A stretch of 64,000 nt of DNA from NCBI GenBank assembly GCA_041661645.1, contig JBAZUA010000001.1, forward strand, positions 192,189 to 256,188. The letters are read 5' to 3'. The first letter of the stretch is position 1. Each line of letters opens with the position of its first letter. The position numbers were made by a program, and so were the translations under genes. The notes below the pieces were generated by a model. That model was given only the letters and a program-made list of their open reading frames with translations. It searched no databases and was not told the DNA's origin. This stretch comes from Minisyncoccota bacterium (GTDB lineage: Bacteria > Patescibacteriota > Minisyncoccia > Phycocordibacterales > UBA6065). Positions 6,952-64,000 of this stretch are shown here, one piece after another.

Positions 6952-7347
6952 TCAGTGGACGCCCTGCGAGCGAGGTCTCTTCCTGAGGGCCTCCGAAAGC
7001 GTGAGGCCGGGACCGAATTTCCTGCGCCTGGCACGGGCCATGGCAATGGGATCACTCAGCCTGACCGCAACCTTCTTCTGCTTGACCCGATACTGGAGAA
7101 TGTCGCCCTCGCCAACCTTGCGATAGAGGGTGTAGCTCAGCTGCCTCGATATCCTGCTATTCAGGATGTAGTCGATGACCTCCTGGCTATCGACCCGAAA
7201 GACATTCCTCTGCGCTGGCTCACCCGACGAGGGAATGACCGTCTTGCCCTCGCAGGCCTCCACCTTGTCGCCAAGACTGACAAAGGCGTCGTTCGTGAAA
7301 GCGTCGCCCGGCTCGAAATACCACGTGGTATTTGCTTGTTTCGTCAT
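6952..7347 (-). CDS. Hypothetical protein with a basic C-terminus
   Basis: Strong SD AGAGGAGGAAC lies 6 nt upstream of ATG 7347. Intrinsic terminators lie on both sides. No recognisable domain. Confidence 0.45.
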   Translation of the reverse strand: MTKQANTTWYFEPGDAFTNDAFVSLGDKVEACEGKTVIPSSGEPAQRNVFRVDSQEVIDYILNSRISRQLSYTLYRKVGEGDILQYRVKQKKVAVRLSDPIAMARARRRKFGPGLTLSEALRKRPRSQGVH

Positions 7348-7446
7348 ATGGTTGTTCCTCCTCTGTTGATGTGCTTGTTTCTTACCCATTACCCTACTCC
7401 TCTTTGGGGATTTGTAAACGGAGCGAGGTGCATAAAATGAAAACCC

Positions 7447-7480
7447 GCCATTTGAAGTGGCGGGTGGGCTTGAAGCCCTT
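7447..7480. terminator. Bidirectional intrinsic terminator
   Basis: cccgccatttgaagtggcggg hairpin, plus gggcttgaagccc hairpin and T-run on the plus strand. On the minus strand the first hairpin is followed by TTTTCATTTT. Confidence 0.55.
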
Positions 7481-7720
7481 TTGTTATTTTGGCGCCGTCG
7501 GATTAGAATCCGCGGTCGCCGGGGCCGGCGGTGTTGTTGGCGCGGATGGACATCCGGTCGTCGGTGATGACGCAATCCTTCTTGAGGAACGGAGGGCTGT
7601 GCGTTGCTTTCATAGGACGAGCAGGGACGGCTTCATGACCAAGACGTTAAGCGCCAGGGCGCATATCAATCAGCCGTTTTACTCTGCAAATACGATACCC
7701 AATATAATAAATATTGTCAA

Positions 7721-8734
7721 CTACCTCTCCCCTCCCAGAAAACCCTCGACCGTCTTCTCCAGATCTGCCGCGCTCTCGGCCTCCATGAGCTTCACGCGAA
7801 GCTCTTTCGCATGGTCGAAGCCATGCACGTACGCCTTGAAGTGCTTCTTCATGATGGCAAAGCTCTTTATGTCCCCAAGGAGCTTCTCGTAGAGCTTTGA
7901 ATGGTCGACGAGAACACGAAGCTTCTCCTCGAGCGTCGGAACGACGGGCTTGCCGTCCTTTGAATGAAGCTCCGAGAACAGCCACGGGTTGCCGAATATG
8001 GCGCGGCCGAGCATGACGCCATCGGCACCGGATGCCGCGGCCTTGGCCCGCGCGTCCTCCAGGTTCAAGGCATCGCCGTTGCCGATGATGAGGGTCGGGA
8101 CGCCCATCCTGTCGCGGATGCCAACGACCTCTTTGACATGCTCCCAGCGGGCGGGCACGAGGGACATCTCCTTGCGGGTGCGACAGTGCAGGGTGAGCAC
8201 GGCAACGCCCTCGGCCAGTATCTCGGGAATCCAGGTGGCTATCTCGTTCTTGTTGTATCCGATGCGGGTCTTGACCGAGACGGGGATTATCCTTCCTTTT
8301 GCGCCCATCTTTTCCGCGGCAAGTGCTACGCCCTCCTTTGCTGCGCGGATGACCTCCCTCGCGAGCCTCGGGTTCTTCATCATAGCCGCGCCCGCCCCCT
8401 GCTTCTCGATCGAGCGATCGGGACAGCCCATGTTGATGTCGATGCCGTCAAAACCAAGCTCGGCGGCGAGCCTCGAGGCCTCGCGCATCTTGTCGGGATG
8501 CGAGGAGAAGAGCTGTGCCACTATCGGTCGCTCCCCCTCGGTGTATTCGAGGTCGCGCTGAAGGACCTTTCGCCCCGGAGAGCAGAGGCCGTCGGCCGAG
8601 ACGAACTCGGTCCACAGCACGTGTGGCTTGCCGTGCTCGGTTATGACGCGTCGAAAGGCCGCGTCAGTGACGTCGGCCATGGGCGCGAGCACGAAGAACG
8701 GCCGCGGAAGCTTTTTCCAGAATCCCATTTCCAT
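7721..8734 (-). CDS. dus: tRNA-dihydrouridine synthase
   Basis: FVLAPMADVTD..., GFDGIDINMGCP... and the TIM-barrel flavoprotein Dus signature. Confidence 0.85.
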   Translation of the reverse strand: MEMGFWKKLPRPFFVLAPMADVTDAAFRRVITEHGKPHVLWTEFVSADGLCSPGRKVLQRDLEYTEGERPIVAQLFSSHPDKMREASRLAAELGFDGIDINMGCPDRSIEKQGAGAAMMKNPRLAREVIRAAKEGVALAAEKMGAKGRIIPVSVKTRIGYNKNEIATWIPEILAEGVAVLTLHCRTRKEMSLVPARWEHVKEVVGIRDRMGVPTLIIGNGDALNLEDARAKAAASGADGVMLGRAIFGNPWLFSELHSKDGKPVVPTLEEKLRVLVDHSKLYEKLLGDIKSFAIMKKHFKAYVHGFDHAKELRVKLMEAESAADLEKTVEGFLGGER

Positions 8735-14762: not shown

Positions 14763-15068
14763 ATGCCCTCCTACAAAAAGCCATCTGATTCTAAAATAGT
14801 AGTCCGAGCCCTCCCGAAACCGTTTGCAGACGCGAACGGTTTCCAGGAATGGCTCCGCCAGCAGAAAGCGAACATCGCGCCGCGAAACCGCATTCCGGGA
14901 GCATGGCTCGACCAGCTCCCGAAGCTCGGACACGGCATCATCGTCCGCTGGGCGGACCACAAGCCGCTGCCGGTCCGTCTGGCGGGAGAACGAGTGTGGT
15001 TCAAGCCGTTCAAAAGCGGCCTTCCCCAGGGTCAGATGATAGCGCTTGAAATACCTCGTGCCGCCTGA
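14763..15068 (+). CDS. Small hypothetical protein, paralog 1 of a tandem triplet
   Basis: 101 aa. Shares an ...E.WL..Q... / GxGIIxRxI pattern with the next two ORFs. It has its own promoter and terminator. Confidence 0.5.
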   Translation: MPSYKKPSDSKIVVRALPKPFADANGFQEWLRQQKANIAPRNRIPGAWLDQLPKLGHGIIVRWADHKPLPVRLAGERVWFKPFKSGLPQGQMIALEIPRAA

Positions 15069-15092
15069 TCGGCCCTGGTCAGTGCCAGCATA

Positions 15093-15127
15093 AAGGGCGC
15101 GTTCCAAGGAACGCGCCCTTTCTTCTT
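15093..15127 (+). terminator. Intrinsic terminator (gggcgcgttcc-aagg-aacgcgccc plus tttcttctt)
   Basis: Seen directly. Confidence 0.55.
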
Positions 15128-15156
15128 GACTACGAGCGAGCTTGATGCAATATAGA
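15126..15156 (+). promoter_or_regulatory. Sigma70-type promoter TTGACT-19-TATAGA placed 8 nt before ATG 15165
   Basis: Same TTGACTA...gcaaTAT...ACACAAA architecture as the promoter before paralog 3. Confidence 0.45.
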
Positions 15157-15164
15157 CACAAACC

Positions 15165-15524
15165 ATGAACTTTGTATCCATAAAGACGACACCCATCAAC
15201 CTGCGCGACGTCGGGCGACTCGAGACATGGCTTCGAATGCAGAATCTGGAGGTGGCCCTCGATCAGGACATGCCCGAGGACTGGAAAGGCATCCTCGAGA
15301 TGAAGCACGGCTGCATAGTCAGGCGCATCATCTATGGGGAGCCGACAAAGCGCCAGAAATCAGTCGGATTTGAGCTGGTCCCGGGAGACATCATCCTCGG
15401 AACGATATCTCGGGAGGGCTATGTGCCCCTGATTTCCAATCACGAAATCCTCATACCCGAGGGACAGCTCGTGCTCGTCAAAAAGAGACGTCGAATCCCG
15501 AAGATTAACAAAGCCACCCCATAA
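15165..15524 (+). CDS. Small hypothetical protein, paralog 2 of a tandem triplet
   Basis: 119 aa. Recognisable similarity to paralogs 1 and 3 (LETWLRMQ..., GCIVRRIIYGEP). Confidence 0.5.
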   Translation: MNFVSIKTTPINLRDVGRLETWLRMQNLEVALDQDMPEDWKGILEMKHGCIVRRIIYGEPTKRQKSVGFELVPGDIILGTISREGYVPLISNHEILIPEGQLVLVKKRRRIPKINKATP

Positions 15525-15537
15525 GGGCGGCTTTTTC

Positions 15538-15568
15538 TTGACTAAGAAACTTTTTCGGGCAATATGTG
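15538..15568 (+). promoter_or_regulatory. Sigma70-type promoter TTGACT-19-TATGTG placed 6 nt before ATG 15575
   Basis: The leader is almost identical to the one before paralog 2 (gcaaTATrkrACACAAAy). Confidence 0.45.
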
Positions 15569-15574
15569 ACACAA

Positions 15575-15922
15575 ATGATCATCACACGAACCTTGTCCAT
15601 CATCGTCAAAACGCCGCAGGAACTCGAGAAGTGGCTCGACGAGCAATCCTTCGAGGGCAAACCCCTCAGACTCGCCACCAATCATGATGTCCCCGCAGAC
15701 CAGTATCACGAACTGATATCGAAAGGCAGGGGCATAATCGCCAATTTCATACCGATGAGCCACGGCGGCGGGCCGCGAAATCCGTCCCTGCCGCTCGGCT
15801 TCGAGCCTGTTGCGGGGAAAGCAAGGTTGAGCCTCATCAGCATCGGGACGGCCGTTCCCCTGCTGTTCGAGGTCTGGGGACCGCTCACCGAGGAGCAGGC
15901 GGTTGTCCTCATCGGCACATAG
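15575..15922 (+). CDS. Small hypothetical protein, paralog 3 of a tandem triplet
   Basis: The ORF track starts at GTG 15566, which overlaps the -10 box, so ATG 15575 was chosen. The protein is MIITRTLSIIVKTPQELEKWLDEQ...GRGIIANFIPM. A terminator follows at 15949-15980. Confidence 0.5.
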   Translation: MIITRTLSIIVKTPQELEKWLDEQSFEGKPLRLATNHDVPADQYHELISKGRGIIANFIPMSHGGGPRNPSLPLGFEPVAGKARLSLISIGTAVPLLFEVWGPLTEEQAVVLIGT

Positions 15923-17140: not shown

Positions 17141-17224
17141 TGCCGGAGTGGCGGAACTGGTCAGACGCGCACGACTCAAAATCGTGTATCGAAAGGTGTG
17201 TGGGTTCGACTCCCACCTCCGGCA
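17141..17224 (+). tRNA. tRNA-Leu (anticodon CAA), long variable arm, no encoded CCA
   Basis: Acceptor GCCGGAG/CTCCGGC. Anticodon stem-loop CACGA-CTCAAAA-TCGTG. Variable arm TATCGAAAGGTGTGT. T-arm GTGGG-TTCGACT-CCCAC. Confidence 0.75.
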
Positions 17225-17225
17225 C

Positions 17226-17260
17226 AAAAAAGGCCCGTCTTCAGACGGGCCGATAAAAAA
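17226..17260 (-). terminator. Intrinsic terminator for the 17267..17506 gene
   Basis: ggcccgtc-ttca-gacgggcc hairpin followed by a T-run on the minus strand. Confidence 0.5.
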
Positions 17261-17266
17261 GAAACT

Positions 17267-17506
17267 TCACTGAACTCCCGGAGGACCATCGCCCCACTCC
17301 TTGAGCGCCTCAGCGTGAGCCGCCTCGAGCATCCTAATCAAATCAGGCATTCCGTTGACGCGCTTGAGGTCGATGCTTTCTTTAAGTCGCGCCCCGATGG
17401 CACGGACCTCCTCAACCCTTCCAACGCTTTTCTTTGACACCAGGACGAAAAAGGACGCCTTCCTGTGAGCAGGATCGGTTCTCTTGAACTCAACTTGAGA
17501 TAGCAT
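17267..17506 (-). CDS. Small hypothetical protein (79 aa)
   Basis: SD AGGAG lies 9 nt upstream of ATG 17506. A terminator lies downstream. Confidence 0.45.
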   Translation of the reverse strand: MLSQVEFKRTDPAHRKASFFVLVSKKSVGRVEEVRAIGARLKESIDLKRVNGMPDLIRMLEAAHAEALKEWGDGPPGVQ

Positions 17507-17574
17507 ACTAAGGTTCTCCTAAATAGCGGGTTATGGTTGCAAATCCCTTTCAGTCCTGATATTACTGGGTTCTC

Positions 17575-19828: not shown

Positions 19829-21004
19829 TTATTTATCGGACTTCCCTTTGCCGCCCCTGCCGGACTCGCCCCTCCTCAAATACCTCTTTCCCTTCAGCTT
19901 TTCCGGCAACAAGCTCTCGGCGGAATACTTCTCATATCCCGCGCCGTAGCCGAGGCCCTTCATCAACTTCGTTGGCGCGTTCCTGATCTTGAGAGGTATC
20001 GGAAGATTGCCTGTGACCTTCACGTCGGCAAGAGCCTCGAAATAGGCCTCGTATGCGGACCTGTCCTTTGCCGCCGACGCGAGATAGGCAACGCCGTGAG
20101 CAAGGTTGATCGCCGCCTCGGGCAGCCCGATGCTCTCCACGGCCGCGAACACCGCATTCGCCACGACGAGCGCCGTCGGTTGGGCGAGTCCGACGTCCTC
20201 TGACGCGAATATGACCATGCGGCGGGCGATGAACTTCGGGTCTTCCCCGCCCTCGATCATGCGCGCCAGATAATACAGGGCCGCGTCGGCATCGCTCGCC
20301 CTCATGCTCTTTATGAAGGCGCTTATGGTGTCGTAATGTTCGTCGCCCTTCTTGTCGAAGCGTATGAAAATTTGTTCGAACGTGCTTTTCAGAGTCTCGA
20401 GAGTCACCGTCCCATACAGACGCTTGGCGTTCTCGAGGGCCGTCAGCGCCATGCGCGCGTCGCCGTTTGCGAGATTGACAAGCCAGTCAAGCGCAGCCTT
20501 CGGCAGCTTTATCTTCGTCCTCTTCACGATCGCCTCGATGTCCTTCGTCTCGAGACTCTTCAGCACGAACACTCGCGAGCGCGAGAGGAGTGCGGGAATG
20601 ACTTCGAAACTCGGGTTCTCGGTCGTGGCGCCGATGAGGGTTAGTCGTCCGCTCTCGACAAAGGGCAAAAGAAAGTCCTGTTGGGCCTTGTTGAAGCGAT
20701 GTATCTCATCGAGGAACAGGAGCTTGGGACGCTGATCGAGCAGATCAGTCTCGGACATGATGCGCTTGATGTCCTCCTTGCCCGCAGAAACGGCAGAAAG
20801 CTCGTACAGGCGCGCATCCAGTGCCTTTGCGTATATTCGGGCCAACGTGGTCTTTCCCACGCCTGGAGGCCCCCAGAGAATGAAGGAAAGCAGGTGCCTG
20901 TCGTCGATTGCCTTGCGCAAAGGTTTTCCGACGCCCACCAAATGCTCCTGGCCGATGAACTCGGCGAGGGACTGCGGTCTGATTTTTGATGCGAGGGGTT
21001 CCAT
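19829..21004 (-). CDS. rarA: Replication-associated recombination protein A (AAA+ ATPase)
   Basis: Walker A GPPGVGKTT. Walker B LFLDEIHRF. The MgsA C-terminal domain is present. Confidence 0.85.
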   Translation of the reverse strand: MEPLASKIRPQSLAEFIGQEHLVGVGKPLRKAIDDRHLLSFILWGPPGVGKTTLARIYAKALDARLYELSAVSAGKEDIKRIMSETDLLDQRPKLLFLDEIHRFNKAQQDFLLPFVESGRLTLIGATTENPSFEVIPALLSRSRVFVLKSLETKDIEAIVKRTKIKLPKAALDWLVNLANGDARMALTALENAKRLYGTVTLETLKSTFEQIFIRFDKKGDEHYDTISAFIKSMRASDADAALYYLARMIEGGEDPKFIARRMVIFASEDVGLAQPTALVVANAVFAAVESIGLPEAAINLAHGVAYLASAAKDRSAYEAYFEALADVKVTGNLPIPLKIRNAPTKLMKGLGYGAGYEKYSAESLLPEKLKGKRYLRRGESGRGGKGKSDK

Positions 21005-21026
21005 GTTTTATGCGCGGGAGCGCGAA

Positions 21027-21515
21027 TTACTTCCCTTCCACCCTCAGGCGATCGAGGCCATGCTTGTCGAACTCCTTGTCATATTTGCTGTAATATTCGC
21101 GGACGCCTTCGGGAAGAAGACCGTCTTCTGTCTCTATCGAGTCGACATCCCCTTCCGAGACATTCTCCAGAAAGTCGCGCTGGCCCAGGCGATCGGAAAG
21201 CTCGAGCCAGAACTGATCCTCGATGTATTCATCAACGATTTCCTCCGTCCCGTCCATGATGTCATCGGCGGGCAGGAGCCTCTTGCCCGCTTCCTGCACC
21301 AAATCTTCCGCATCGGTGCCGATGGCCGACTCGAGGACGATTTTCTCGAGCGCGACAAGGCTTTTGAGGGCGACGCGACTCTCGGTGCCGTCGGCCTCCC
21401 CGGCCCTAGCCCCGTGAACGGTCTCCTGTATGAGAAGCCCTATGTCGAGAACGCCCAGGAGACCCCGGTACTGGTCGACATCGAGCAATATGTTGATGCG
21501 TGAATTGTCGGTCAT
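21027..21515 (-). CDS. Acidic hypothetical protein (162 aa, very D/E-rich)
   Basis: Long ORF with coding-like third-position GC. No domain recognised. Confidence 0.4.
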   Translation of the reverse strand: MTDNSRINILLDVDQYRGLLGVLDIGLLIQETVHGARAGEADGTESRVALKSLVALEKIVLESAIGTDAEDLVQEAGKRLLPADDIMDGTEEIVDEYIEDQFWLELSDRLGQRDFLENVSEGDVDSIETEDGLLPEGVREYYSKYDKEFDKHGLDRLRVEGK

Positions 21516-21592
21516 ATCCAGAAGTATGTCAGGTGCCCGCTCAAAAGCAAGATGCTTGGCATAAGGGGTTTTTGTGCTATGCTTTTGCGAAC

Positions 21593-21664
21593 GGGCCTAT
21601 AGTTTCAATGGTAAAACATCTCACTCCAAACGAGAGGTTCCAGGTTCGAGTCCTGGTGGGCCCG
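21593..21664 (+). tRNA. tRNA-Trp (anticodon CCA)
   Basis: Acceptor GGGCCTA/TGGGCCC. Anticodon loop CTCCAAA as in E. coli tRNA-Trp. T-arm CCAGG-TTCGAGT-CCTGG. Confidence 0.7.
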
Positions 21665-22328
21665 CAAATACGGTCAAATCTAGTTTAAAGCACTCTGCCG
21701 CAACAGCCCTTAGTTCCCGAGAAATTCTTACATCGTGATAACGAAGATTGGCGCATCCCTGATATCCCTCTTTTCTACAGAGGCCGGAATTCTTTTTCTG
21801 AAAAGTCTTTATGAATTGACTCGTCGGCACCCCGGTGACTTTCGACCACAGGGCAAGTTGGGCCGACACGTCATGATATGAATGAAGATGCATTTGAACC
21901 CTAAACTTACCCTCATCGAGAGAAAAGGAGGCACGGAGGGTGTTTACGAAAAGCCTCATGAGTCCAGGGTCAGAATTCATGAAAGACACTCCCGAATAGG
22001 GTGACTTAGTTCCCTCGCAGACATAAAGCATGGCGCAGAGAAAAAGCGAGGAGTCCCGATTAAATCGCACCTTCGAAACCATCTTCCGAGCACGTCTCAG
22101 AGCTTCGTCTTCCTTGCCAAGCCTTCTGTTTCGAAGGGTCTCCTGGGAACGCAATTGTCCAACGACGGATTTTGCCAGCAGTTTCTCCCTCGCTTCCGCC
22201 GAAAGGACCACATTTCTCACCCACGTCGAGACCGAGCTTTTAGACACGCCCAAAGCAGTCACTATCTCATTCAGAGAATAGCCCTGTTTCCTCAGCTCCA
22301 TGGCCCTCATTTTCTGCGCTGCCTTCAT
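21621..22328 (-). CDS. HTH-domain protein with a possible LAGLIDADG-like nuclease C-terminal domain; its 3' end overlaps tRNA-Trp
   Basis: N-terminal HTH (GYSLNEIVTALGVSKSSVSTWVRN). C-terminal LFLCAMLYVCEGTKS...VSFMNSDPGLMRLFVNTL resembles the LAGLIDADG motif plus beta-sheet. Lower GC than its neighbours. Start chosen at the MKAAQK ATG. The longer track ORF overlaps rpmG in another frame. Confidence 0.4.
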   Translation of the reverse strand: MKAAQKMRAMELRKQGYSLNEIVTALGVSKSSVSTWVRNVVLSAEAREKLLAKSVVGQLRSQETLRNRRLGKEDEALRRARKMVSKVRFNRDSSLFLCAMLYVCEGTKSPYSGVSFMNSDPGLMRLFVNTLRASFSLDEGKFRVQMHLHSYHDVSAQLALWSKVTGVPTSQFIKTFQKKNSGLCRKEGYQGCANLRYHDVRISRELRAVAAECFKLDLTVFAGPPGLEPGTSRLE

Positions 22329-22408
22329 GCCACAATCGTAGCAAAAGGGTGATAAAGGAATTATAAAGACCAAAGAAAAAGGCCGCCCTTCGGGCGGCCC
22401 TTTCGCGA

Positions 22409-22564
22409 CTACTTCTTCGCCTCCTTGAAGACGACGCGCTTCCTGAGAAGCTTTGAGTACTTCTTGAGCTCGATCTTGCGCTCCACCTTCTTCTTGTTCT
22501 TTCGGGTGTAGTAGACCTCGCCGGTGGCCTTGTTCTTGAGAATGATGAGTGAGTCCTGTGACAT
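22409..22564 (-). CDS. rpmG: 50S ribosomal protein L33
   Basis: MSQDSLIILKNKATGEVYYTRKNKKKVERKIELKKYSKLLRKRVVFKEAKK matches the bL33 consensus (YxTxKNKK...LELKKY...V..KE.K). Confidence 0.7.
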   Translation of the reverse strand: MSQDSLIILKNKATGEVYYTRKNKKKVERKIELKKYSKLLRKRVVFKEAKK

Positions 22565-22636
22565 AAATTGAATGAAAATGTTGTAGGAGGATAGTATCAC
22601 AGCCTCCATAAAACCGCAATACGCGCCCGTAATCGG

Positions 22637-23788
22637 CTATTTCAGGGCAATGCGCGGTATGAGGGGATTTATGCGGGTGACCACCTCGTAATTGATCGTG
22701 CCGGCCTTTTCGGCCATCTCGTCGGCGGAAATCGTCTCGGAACCCTGAGTGCCGATCAGGACCACCTCGTCGCTCTCTCTCGCGCCGGGCATGTCAGTCA
22801 CGTCAACGATGGCCATATCCATACTCACCCTGCCGATGATGTTTGCCCTTTTGCCCCCAATGAGCACCTGACCCCTGTTGGAGACGCCTCTCGACAGGCC
22901 GTGCCAATAGCCGACGGGGATAACGGCGATGCGGGAGTCTCGCGCGACCTCATATGTCAGGTCATAGCCGACCTTTGACCCGCGAGGCACAAACTTGGTC
23001 TCGGTGACGATGGTTTTCCACGAGAGGGCGGAAACGAGATGTATCGCCTTGGCGTGTCTCCGTATCTCGGGCGACGGCCAAAGACCGTAGAGAGATATAC
23101 CCGCCCTCGACATATCGCAATGAAAATCATCGGAAAAGAGTATGCCTGAACTTGCCGACGCGTGGGTGATGGGCGTGAACCCCTTCTCCCTGAGCCTCTC
23201 GACGGCCGCCTTGAACTTGCCGATCTGCATCCTCGAATATGCCTCGCTCGTGGGGGTCTCCATGGCGGCAAAGTGGGTGTACGCGCCCTCGATCACCGCA
23301 GGAAAGCCTGCCGCGGAGATAGTGCGAACGGCCTGCTGTATCTGGGGCTCGAGCAGGCCCTGCCTGTGGAGGCCCGTGTCGAACTTGATGTGGATGCGGA
23401 GTCTCTTGGAAAGCTTCGTCTTTGCCAAATTCTGAAGCGACTCGAGCGATGATATCGTCAGAGAGACGTTCTTTGCCGCCGCGACTTTATAGAATGCGGG
23501 CAAGGTGTAGCCGAGGACGAGGACGGAGGCCTTGATGCCGGCCTTACGCAGCTCGAGCGCCTCATTCAATTCGTCGACGGCGAGCCAGTTCGCCCCACCC
23601 TTGAGCGCCGCCTTTGCGGCAACAACCATTCCATGTCCGTATGCGTTCGACTTTACCACGGCCATGAGGGCGACCTCGCCCGAGAGGAGCACCTTGAGGG
23701 TGCGGGCGTTTCCCTCGATTGCCCTTGTGTCGATTTCCACCCAGGTTCGATGGGTCGGAACGGGCGTCTTCATGGCCTTCTTTTTCAT
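22637..23788 (-). CDS. alr: Alanine racemase
   Basis: PLP-lysine motif AVVKSNAYGHG. C-terminal beta domain with GRVSMDM. Confidence 0.9.
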   Translation of the reverse strand: MKKKAMKTPVPTHRTWVEIDTRAIEGNARTLKVLLSGEVALMAVVKSNAYGHGMVVAAKAALKGGANWLAVDELNEALELRKAGIKASVLVLGYTLPAFYKVAAAKNVSLTISSLESLQNLAKTKLSKRLRIHIKFDTGLHRQGLLEPQIQQAVRTISAAGFPAVIEGAYTHFAAMETPTSEAYSRMQIGKFKAAVERLREKGFTPITHASASSGILFSDDFHCDMSRAGISLYGLWPSPEIRRHAKAIHLVSALSWKTIVTETKFVPRGSKVGYDLTYEVARDSRIAVIPVGYWHGLSRGVSNRGQVLIGGKRANIIGRVSMDMAIVDVTDMPGARESDEVVLIGTQGSETISADEMAEKAGTINYEVVTRINPLIPRIALK

Positions 23789-23834
23789 AGCGAGAATAGT
23801 AGCATAAAACCGGCCGAAGCCGGTTTTGATGTTG

Positions 23835-23917
23835 TGCGCCGAGAGGGACTCGAACCCCCGATGCCCAGTGGGCCGGAGATTTACAGTCTCCTGGAATAGC
23901 CGCTATCCGATCGGCGC
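23835..23917 (-). tRNA. tRNA-Tyr (anticodon GUA), long variable arm
   Basis: Perfect acceptor stem GCGCCGA/TCGGCGC. Anticodon stem-loop GGAGA-CTGTAAA-TCTCC. T-arm GGGGG-TTCGAGT-CCCTC. Confidence 0.75.
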
Positions 23918-63678: not shown

Positions 63679-63762
63679 GCCGGATACTTTCCTTTATTTT
63701 TTGTTTAAGATTTCTTGGCGGTTCTTTGAATGCCCGTCGTGTATCATGCCCCCATGAAATCA

Positions 63763-64000
63763 CGGTGGGCGCACGTAAAGGAGGAGGTCATTTCCCTCAG
63801 ACAAGAGGGCGCCTCGATGAACGAGATCGAGGCGAGGTTTGGCGTGCCGAAATCGACACAGAATAGCTGGTTCTGGAAAATCGAATTACCCGAAGAGGCT
63901 CGCGCGATTCTCAGGCAGAAGAAAAAAGGACACCTGATCGAGGCTCGCAAAAAAGCAGTTGAATGGCACAACACGGAAAAGGCAAAGAGACTTGAGGCGG
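63763..64000 (+). CDS. HTH-domain protein, paralog of 21621..22328; partial, continues beyond the window end
   Basis: MKSRWAHVKEEVISLRQEGASMNEIEARFGVPKSTQNSWFWKIELPEEARAILRQKKKGHLIEARKK. The HTH and the following helix align with the 22328 gene N-terminus. The frame is open to position 64000. Confidence 0.4.

Follow-up and report, generated by a model that had tools for sequence, protein, structure and literature searches.

A gene family of HTH and LAGLIDADG-like proteins encoded beside tRNA genes: candidate free-standing homing endonucleases of Patescibacteria, Actinomycetota and archaea

In the 64,000-nucleotide (nt) stretch of Minisyncoccota DNA analyzed here (contig JBAZUA010000001.1, positions 192,189 to 256,188; the whole stretch is called the window), a gene with an N-terminal helix-turn-helix (HTH) runs at its 3′ end into a tRNA-Trp gene on the opposite strand, which raises the question of what kind of protein is encoded there and why its gene should lie against a tRNA. 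The original prediction, made from the nucleotide sequence of the window, proposed a selfish homing or mobile gene family with a LAGLIDADG-like C-terminal region that settles next to tRNA genes. Our results point, with moderate confidence, to a family of free-standing homing endonucleases that would target tRNA loci, each lineage keeping to one tRNA gene. This reading was favored because it joins a LAGLIDADG-like fold with an invariant carboxylate, clade-specific pairing with tRNAs, a variable side and strand of insertion, empty sites, and replacement of the gene together with its tRNA as a cassette.

Several homologs ended in what looked like translated tRNA, and the loci encoding family members were therefore scanned for tRNAs, using one genome per species and a hand-made degenerate motif pattern, with ARAGORN run on 120 loci. 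A tRNA gene began within 250 nt of the domain end in 102 of the 113 copies with enough downstream sequence, against about 1.5% expected by chance, given how densely other tRNAs are spaced in those loci. The exceptions were mostly upstream members of tandem pairs, plus three archaeal domain-only genes. The predicted settlement beside tRNA genes was thus found family-wide.

The protein tree showed that clades match tRNA identity (Trp, Val, Gln). The main Patescibacteria clade, with members from Paceibacteria, Saccharibacteria, Uhrbacteria, Peribacteria, CPR2 and Microgenomates, was paired throughout with tRNA-Trp(CCA), and a second clade, which includes a paralog at the window end and the second copy of locus L059, with tRNA-Val(GAC). 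A third type adjoined tRNA-Tyr (L060, L133), all actinomycete copies (Micromonospora, Actinoplanes, Actinomadura, Streptosporangiaceae, Trebonia, Nocardiopsis) lay beside tRNA-Gln(UUG), and single cases were associated with tRNA-Ala (Nanoarchaeota) and tRNA-Ser. The usual geometry in Patescibacteria was tandem with zero spacer, the open reading frame (ORF) commonly ending at tRNA U8-A9-G10; gene and tRNA overlapped by 10 nt in eight loci and by 0–15 nt in most. The gene often stood within tRNA arrays, such as tThr-tTyr-tThr-[gene]-tTrp. The convergent geometry of the window was a lineage-specific variant common to its closest relatives. Owing to the acceptor stem, a tRNA gene would present similar sequence inwards from either end, and the junction at the 3′ end of the family gene may thus be similar in tandem and convergent loci, which could explain why this end faces the tRNA in both arrangements.

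Metagenomes scanned with the 49 nt at the 5′ end of the window tRNA-Trp yielded 17 contigs with a tRNA 89–100% identical to it. The family gene was absent from 10 of the 17, and in seven of these ten both flanks were long enough to exclude a copy; L135, L138 and L144 held only 27–171 nt on one side of the tRNA, and a copy could lie beyond the contig end. The empty site in L134 and L142 consisted of rpmG, 87 nt and tRNA-Trp. Carriers differed in where the gene stood: L131 and L146 had it upstream in tandem, the window, L139 and L140 had a convergent copy downstream, and L136 had a divergent copy on the other side. One and the same 73-nt tRNA-Trp sequence was accompanied by the gene in L131 and L146 and stood without it in L133, L135, L141 and L147. 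The slot between rpmG and tRNA-Trp was a variable hotspot in relatives, in which the strand of the tRNA relative to rpmG also varied. It contained an acetyltransferase-like ORF, identified by eye, in L143 (1207–1813) and L145 (3614–4220), and other small genes in L136 (5414–6030) and L138 (106–603), the contents of the hotspot including an unrelated 171-amino-acid (aa) ORF and a 128-aa ORF.

Two copies beside different tRNAs were present per genome in the window genome and in L059, while tandem pairs were found in L025, L062, L087 and L121, and a gene fragment beside an intact copy in L098. Copies in L005, L006, L013, L021, L049, L059, L086 and L091 were split or truncated. Patchy presence at a defined site and decay of fixed copies were therefore both observed, and the empty sites, the alternative positions, the multiple, tandem and decayed copies, and the cassette replacement in Micromonospora support the proposal of a selfish or mobile gene. 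No repeats bracketing the gene were found, whether terminal inverted repeats, target duplications or an att-like second copy of the tRNA 3′ end.

The actinomycete copies were embedded in a conserved block encoding TetR, a fatty-acid desaturase, tRNA-Gln(UUG), glmU, prs, L25 and pth, of which TetR, the desaturase, glmU and prs were assigned with Pfam, and L25 and pth by eye. The gene was located either upstream of tRNA-Gln in tandem or downstream of it and convergent. Among relatives with collinear flanks and gene (81–84% identity), about 300 bp including the tRNA can be exchanged for a different, opposite-strand tRNA-Gln. The adjacent tRNA-Gln(UUG) belonged to four unrelated sequence types, three of which occurred inside the genus Micromonospora at one locus. 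The D-arm of type 1 was tRNA-Glu-like and types 2–4 resembled classical bacterial tRNA-Gln; some type 2 tRNAs (L081, L103, L068) had the anticodon loop CCUUGGA, with C at position 33 in place of the near-universal U. When L007 and L009 were compared, the flanks were 84% and 89% identical, the gene-plus-tRNA unit of about 1 kb aligned partly at 70%, the tRNA did not align at all, and homology returned 13–41 nt past the tRNA. The tRNA-Gln types were intermixed in a tree of the glmU flanks, with T3 in at least three places. Gene and tRNA-Gln thus form a divergent cassette between conserved flanks in Micromonospora. A speculative and rather doubtful extension is that these units are natural "cleave-and-rescue" cassettes, in which a nuclease would destroy the resident essential tRNA, carry a divergent, cleavage-resistant copy and replace the host allele. 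Such cassettes would explain the three unrelated Micromonospora tRNA-Gln(UUG), the flips of tRNA strand between close relatives, and a divergent block that comprises exactly the gene and the tRNA.

The architecture of the window protein was derived from an AlphaFold model built with the alignment of 81 sequences (predicted local distance difference test, pLDDT, 93.7). The N-terminal HTH, which had been predicted correctly, comprised residues 3–36 in the model. It matched the Sleeping Beauty PAI subdomain and showed weak likeness to the N-termini of IS3 and IS630 transposases; residues 5–87 matched the NCBIfam IS3 N-terminal region at E = 2e-5, with 24 bits against a cutoff of 160, and resolvase HTH_7 was also matched by the N-terminal region of family members. 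The 42-residue helix that follows in the model is a possible dimerization coiled coil. The C-terminal domain contained the alpha-beta-beta-alpha-beta-beta-alpha core fold of LAGLIDADG enzymes and was a conserved, confidently folded module common to thousands of proteins. Structural comparison gave values of 7.1 for E-DreI, 7.0 for I-DmoI, 6.9 and 6.8 for two structures of WhiA, 6.7 for I-Tsp061I and 6.3 for the Tli intein endonuclease. OmpA-like and IspF folds were rejected as weak Foldseek hits (template-modeling score, TM, < 0.41).

The segments LFLCAMLYVCEGTKS and VSFMNSDPGLMRLF were the best-conserved part of the family, with E105, G106, F116 and N118 invariant among the 81 sequences and C98, Y102, C104 and K108 kept in at least 90% of them. 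The family motif (I/L)CAxLY(W/V)CEGxK is located at the C-terminal end of helix 91–105, and E105-G106-x-K108 was invariant or nearly so across Patescibacteria, Actinomycetota and archaea. Using hhalign, E105-G106 was placed on the second motif of I-DmoI, LYVAEGDK (E117-G118, K120), at P = 0.016, with an I-DmoI sequence entered by hand, and on the D-G of LAGLIDADG_3 motif 1 at P = 0.006, for which the comparison family was built from the neighbor gene of a related contig (L127). Both alignments were in register with a downstream F-x-N-S-D-P-x-L strand and helix, while hhalign against I-CreI gave no alignment. Glu105 would accordingly occupy the position of, and is probably, the catalytic carboxylate of a divergent LAGLIDADG motif. 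The LAGLIDADG-like C-terminal region of the original prediction is thus supported by the fold, the invariant E105-G106 and the two alignments, with catalysis presumed from sequence. Searches of the C-terminal domain in Pfam, NCBIfam, PDB sequences (single and profile), PADLOC and PHROGs returned HTH matches only; the anti-phage defense families of PADLOC and the phage families of PHROGs gave weak matches to the HTH region and nothing significant beyond it.

A profile search of 1.84 billion cluster representatives (50% identity) retrieved 1,219 clusters at E <= 1e-30 and 4,656 at E <= 1e-10, whose members carry the database names "hypothetical", "HTH domain-containing" or "transposase-like". 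The window protein had 248 homologs and scored 296 bits against the family profile. The literature searches turned up no description of the family. Members from Patescibacteria have about 218 aa, those from actinomycetes about 285 aa with one or two additional HTH repeats, and the Nitrososphaerota forms about 130 aa, consisting of the domain only. The domain-only proteins of L011, L034 and L107 (Nitrososphaerota) had the same YWCEGSK and FVNSDP motifs without the HTH, and their genes were not tRNA-adjacent, apart from a tRNA-Gly upstream in L107. Double-length proteins (P0121–P0128, 424–576 aa) contained two full HTH-plus-domain units per chain, and others up to three N-terminal HTH repeats; the double-length forms may have arisen by true fusion, or may represent read-through across tandem genes. 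The C-terminus of P0121 was translated tRNA complement.

From this combination we infer nuclease activity, dimerization, the tRNA gene as target, and homing. With one divergent LAGLIDADG domain per chain, preceded by the HTH and the long helix, the protein would be expected to act as a homodimer. Where a genome or allele has no insertion, it would recognize its cognate tRNA gene or the DNA next to it and cut there, and repair from a gene-bearing copy would install the gene against the tRNA, often with the linked tRNA allele. Being conserved and essential, tRNA genes would offer stable and safe targets.

Several observations weigh against the homing reading. The window protein matched none of the Pfam LAGLIDADG families at E <= 10 (the curated models PF00961, PF03161, PF14528 and PF14527), none of these models was among the 25 most-matched families when 81 members were scanned at E <= 5, and Foldseek against the PDB gave no LAGLIDADG match. 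The archaeal short forms had no LAGLIDADG Pfam match either, with the canonical LAGLIDADG_3 protein of L127 detected as positive control at E = 6.5e-11. WhiA, a non-catalytic regulator, scored as high as the nucleases in the structural comparison, and many invariant polar residues lie outside the motif, which is atypical of homing endonucleases. Gene-linked and gene-free tRNA-Trp alleles can be identical, so that immunity via a change of target was not seen there. The evidence from decay was weakened because many split copies came from metagenome-assembled genomes with isolate names beginning "MFD", which point to a single survey and are suspected to be frameshift-prone long-read assemblies; these copies were discounted. 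The Micromonospora gene was more diverged (66–78%) than its flanks (80–91%) in all 13 pairs, and the comparison gave no sign of recent horizontal transfer, which predicts a gene more similar than its flanks. Finally, orthologs at conserved syntenic positions, which had been named beforehand as one part of the evidence that would refute the proposal, were found in close relatives. Three relatives held the gene in the same order of Alr, L33, gene, tRNA-Trp and RarA; compared with L130, the protein was 65% identical, L33 and RarA 94%, and Alr 83%. The ratio of nonsynonymous to synonymous substitution (dN/dS) in this comparison was about 0.12 with dS saturated, indicating purifying selection. The gene is old, functional and fast-evolving in the window lineage, and such long vertical persistence is unusual for a purely selfish homing gene. 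Synteny, purifying selection and high divergence fit a long-lived selfish element with recurrent homing and a domesticated DNA-binding protein equally well.

The second of these is the main rival, to which we give a smaller but appreciable probability: the protein would be a non-catalytic, LAGLIDADG-derived DNA-binding protein that, like WhiA, controls transcription of the neighboring tRNA gene or operon or services the tRNA locus in another way, with co-regulation keeping the gene beside its target. WhiA (DUF199) has two degenerate LAGLIDADG domains and a C-terminal HTH, lacks the catalytic acidic residues, and occurs universally in Gram-positive bacteria as a conserved single-copy gene. In the family studied here a single domain follows an N-terminal HTH, and the genes are patchily distributed and present in multiple copies; its 81 scanned members gave no match to the WhiA models PF14527 and PF02650. 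The acidic residue at the catalytic position, lost in WhiA, was invariant in 81/81 members, and its retention sets the family apart from WhiA. A resident regulator is also hard to reconcile with relatives that have the identical tRNA and lack the gene, with a gene that varies in side and strand relative to the tRNA, with partner tRNAs that differ in identity, with tandem duplicates and decayed copies, and with replacement of the tRNA allele along with the gene; nor would a regulator require a gene whose 3′ end abuts the tRNA whichever way it is oriented.

Much less probable is a transposase-like or recombinase-like element that uses tRNA genes as integration sites, as integrases and some insertion sequences (IS) do, with the protein being the enzyme itself or its DNA-binding subunit. 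The resemblance of the N-terminal 87 residues to IS3 and IS630 N-termini, the Sleeping Beauty PAI subdomain and resolvase HTH_7 speaks for such an origin, as does the label "transposase-like" that JGI gives to several members. However, the only domain other than the HTH is LAGLIDADG-like, with no DDE, serine-recombinase or tyrosine-recombinase domain; terminal inverted repeats, target duplications and a duplicated tRNA 3′ fragment are missing from the flanks of the gene; and the inserted unit is the ORF alone, between rpmG and the tRNA. Least probable of all is an ordinary HTH regulator that lies beside a tRNA by chance in a tRNA-dense genome (11 tRNAs in 64 kb), its overlap being a gene-calling artifact of a late stop: the disordered overlapping tail outside the family core, the weak GC deviation and the pipelines that left the gene uncalled on identical DNA fit this view, but 102/113 independent copies adjacent to tRNAs across phyla are not chance and the C-terminal domain is conserved and confidently folded in thousands of proteins, so that it is refuted for the family-level adjacency and survives only for the 45-nt overlap being incidental.

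The favored reading, a homing endonuclease tied to tRNA loci, can be compared with known systems. LAGLIDADG homing endonucleases perform site-specific double-strand cleavage of a target of about 20 bp, leaving 4-nt 3′ overhangs, and evolved from homodimers to monomers, which the fused double forms of the family parallel. Enzymes of the I-DmoI, I-Tsp061I, I-CreI and I-CeuI type provided the best structural matches. They resemble the family in the E-G-x-K helix end (E117-G118-D119-K120 in I-DmoI), in the following beta strand and helix (hydrophobic-x-F-x-N-S-D-x-x-L), and in a domain of about 125 residues, of which single-domain forms imply a homodimer and fused double forms exist. The family differs from them by escaping recognition by Pfam, by an extra helix between strands 3 and 4, and by the N-terminal HTH with its 42-residue helix; it is free-standing in cellular chromosomes instead of residing in an intron or intein, and occupies the outside edge of tRNA genes rather than an insertion inside a gene.

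Free-standing homing endonucleases of phage tRNA gene regions, T4 SegB and the T5 F-Tfl enzymes, are of the GIY-YIG or HNH type, and their expected mode is to cut the tRNA region of a competitor and then co-convert the nuclease gene with flanking tRNA markers. The family likewise has its nuclease-like gene among tRNA genes, and co-conversion matches the behavior of the Micromonospora cassettes. Unlike the phage enzymes, it is LAGLIDADG-like, is found in bacterial and archaeal chromosomes, and has a strict pairing of one gene with one tRNA and a conserved geometry of the 3′ end toward the tRNA. Group I introns of tRNA genes, including those of Patescibacteria, encode HNH, PD-(D/E)XK or PF03161 LAGLIDADG enzymes and are inserted in the anticodon loop (PMC13011429). 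They share with our family the tie of homing-type nucleases to tRNA genes, Patescibacteria included, whereas here no intron interrupts the tRNAs, and the gene is external to them; the family is not described in that study (PMC13011429).

If the homing reading is true, annotation has missed a widespread class of chromosomal free-standing homing endonucleases, and this class would remodel the tRNA loci of Patescibacteria, Actinomycetota and DPANN archaea and even exchange essential tRNA alleles between species. The family would also be a source of new compact, natural, sequence-specific nucleases with an accessory HTH. The model is testable at the bench, as the gene is present in cultured strains of Micromonospora, Actinomadura and Actinoplanes. 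The family further explains ORFs that "overlap" tRNA genes in small Patescibacteria genomes.

The features of the two window loci are listed in Table 1. The overlap stated in the original prediction, the last 14 codons lying in the complement of the tRNA-Trp 3′ half, was confirmed by the ORF, ARAGORN and Rfam: the TGA stop (21621–21623) falls just 5′ of the tRNA-Trp anticodon, and codons 222–235 (AGPPGLEPGTSRLE) together with the stop overlap the tRNA by 45 nt. This tail was disordered in the AlphaFold model (pLDDT 46–59). Most family members stop at about 218 aa, and the tail was common only to relatives with the same convergent tRNA. The overlap is therefore an incidental, disordered read-through and no functional feature in itself. 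The window copy is convergent to tRNA-Trp and stands behind its own putative promoter region; the terminator-like hairpin between rpmG and the gene suggests that it is its own transcription unit. The promoter-like site of tRNA-Trp stops 10 nt short of the tRNA. At the tRNA-Trp locus Rfam detected the tRNA, but neither another RNA element nor an intron, and neither the window protein nor the 51-aa L33 had an exact match on record. The gene had been described as AT-richer than its neighbors, and its GC content is indeed lower (0.50 against a window mean of 0.554, standard deviation 0.045), though the difference is weak, with 12% of same-sized windows being as low.

Table 1. Coordinates of the family genes, their domains and adjoining features in the window
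Feature	Position	Strand	Basis or remark
Gene with HTH, possible coiled coil and LAGLIDADG-like domain, 235 aa, Trp-associated family member	21621..22328	-	ORF, ATG start
N-terminal HTH, aa 3-39, transposase/homeodomain-like type	22212..22322	-	Pfam HTH_23, E = 6e-7
Single long helix, aa 44-85, joining HTH to C-terminal domain	22074..22199	-	DSSP on model, pLDDT ~98
LAGLIDADG-like domain, alpha/beta, aa 91-215	21684..22058	-	
Motif CAMLYVCEGTK, aa 98-108, proposed divergent LAGLIDADG helix	22005..22037	-	Ends in Glu105-Gly106, with Lys108
Read-through tail, aa 222-235 and TGA	21621..21665	-	Complement of tRNA-Trp 3′ half
tRNA-Trp(CCA), partner tRNA gene	21593..21665	+	ARAGORN; Rfam RF00005, 56 bits
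Promoter-like site for tRNA-Trp (TTGGCA, 16-nt spacer, TATGCT, with TG)	21556..21583	+	Consensus scan, pattern match only
Intrinsic-terminator-like hairpin, after rpmG (L33) and directly upstream of the window gene	22376..22404	-	Inverted repeat
Paralog, Val-associated member; 82 codons in window, 234 aa in full	63754..64000	+	

The second gene reported at the window end proved to be a true paralog, 31% identical to the window protein over 207 aa (E = 5e-24), but its start is at 63754, and the position originally given, 63763, is the fourth codon. The full 234-aa protein was retrieved from L001 and L002, contigs identical to the window. Its TAG stop coincides with positions 8–10 of a same-strand tRNA, of which the visible 5′ part reads tRNA-Val(GAC), and the protein grouped in the tree with the tRNA-Val-adjacent copy of L059. 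A paralog tail made of tRNA complement was rejected, as the DNA shows the same-strand tRNA 5′ end. A six-frame profile search of the 64 kb found no further family copies.

Annotation of this locus was incomplete in public records. The JGI and ENA calls on L123 and L124, which are 100% identical to window positions 21000–23000, skip the gene and leave 894 nt empty between L33 and a 162-aa gene, suggesting that the family is under-called where it overlaps a tRNA. Only tRNA-Trp among the 11 tRNA genes has an adjoining family gene inside the window, as the partner tRNA of the paralog is situated shortly past the window end; the window tRNA-Tyr (23834–23917) has no Tyr-type copy, and the relative L133 has one. 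Contigs L125 and L126 break at window position 21663, and L001 and L002 break inside the tRNA after the paralog. These four independent short-read contig breaks at tRNAs of family genes could reflect strain heterogeneity or tRNA repeats in the assembly graph.

The related contig L127 carried a canonical two-motif LAGLIDADG_3 gene (6952–7662, minus strand; Pfam E = 6.5e-11) between ParB and MiaA, 35–44 nt downstream of tRNA-Leu(CAA) at 7706–7789. The matching slot of the window (17226–17574), between tRNA-Leu(CAA) (17142–17225) and MiaA, was an empty 350 nt. The family of this L127 gene had 1,364 hits, mostly in Patescibacteria; a LAGLIDADG_3 gene beside tRNA-Leu as a general pattern was rejected, since among the loci compared it was seen in L127 only. 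Elsewhere in the window, three consecutive plus-strand ORFs (101, 119 and 118 aa; 14763–15922) upstream of parB look mutually paralogous, with a pattern resembling ...W(L)...Q...(P)..W...(K/H)G.I(V/A)...

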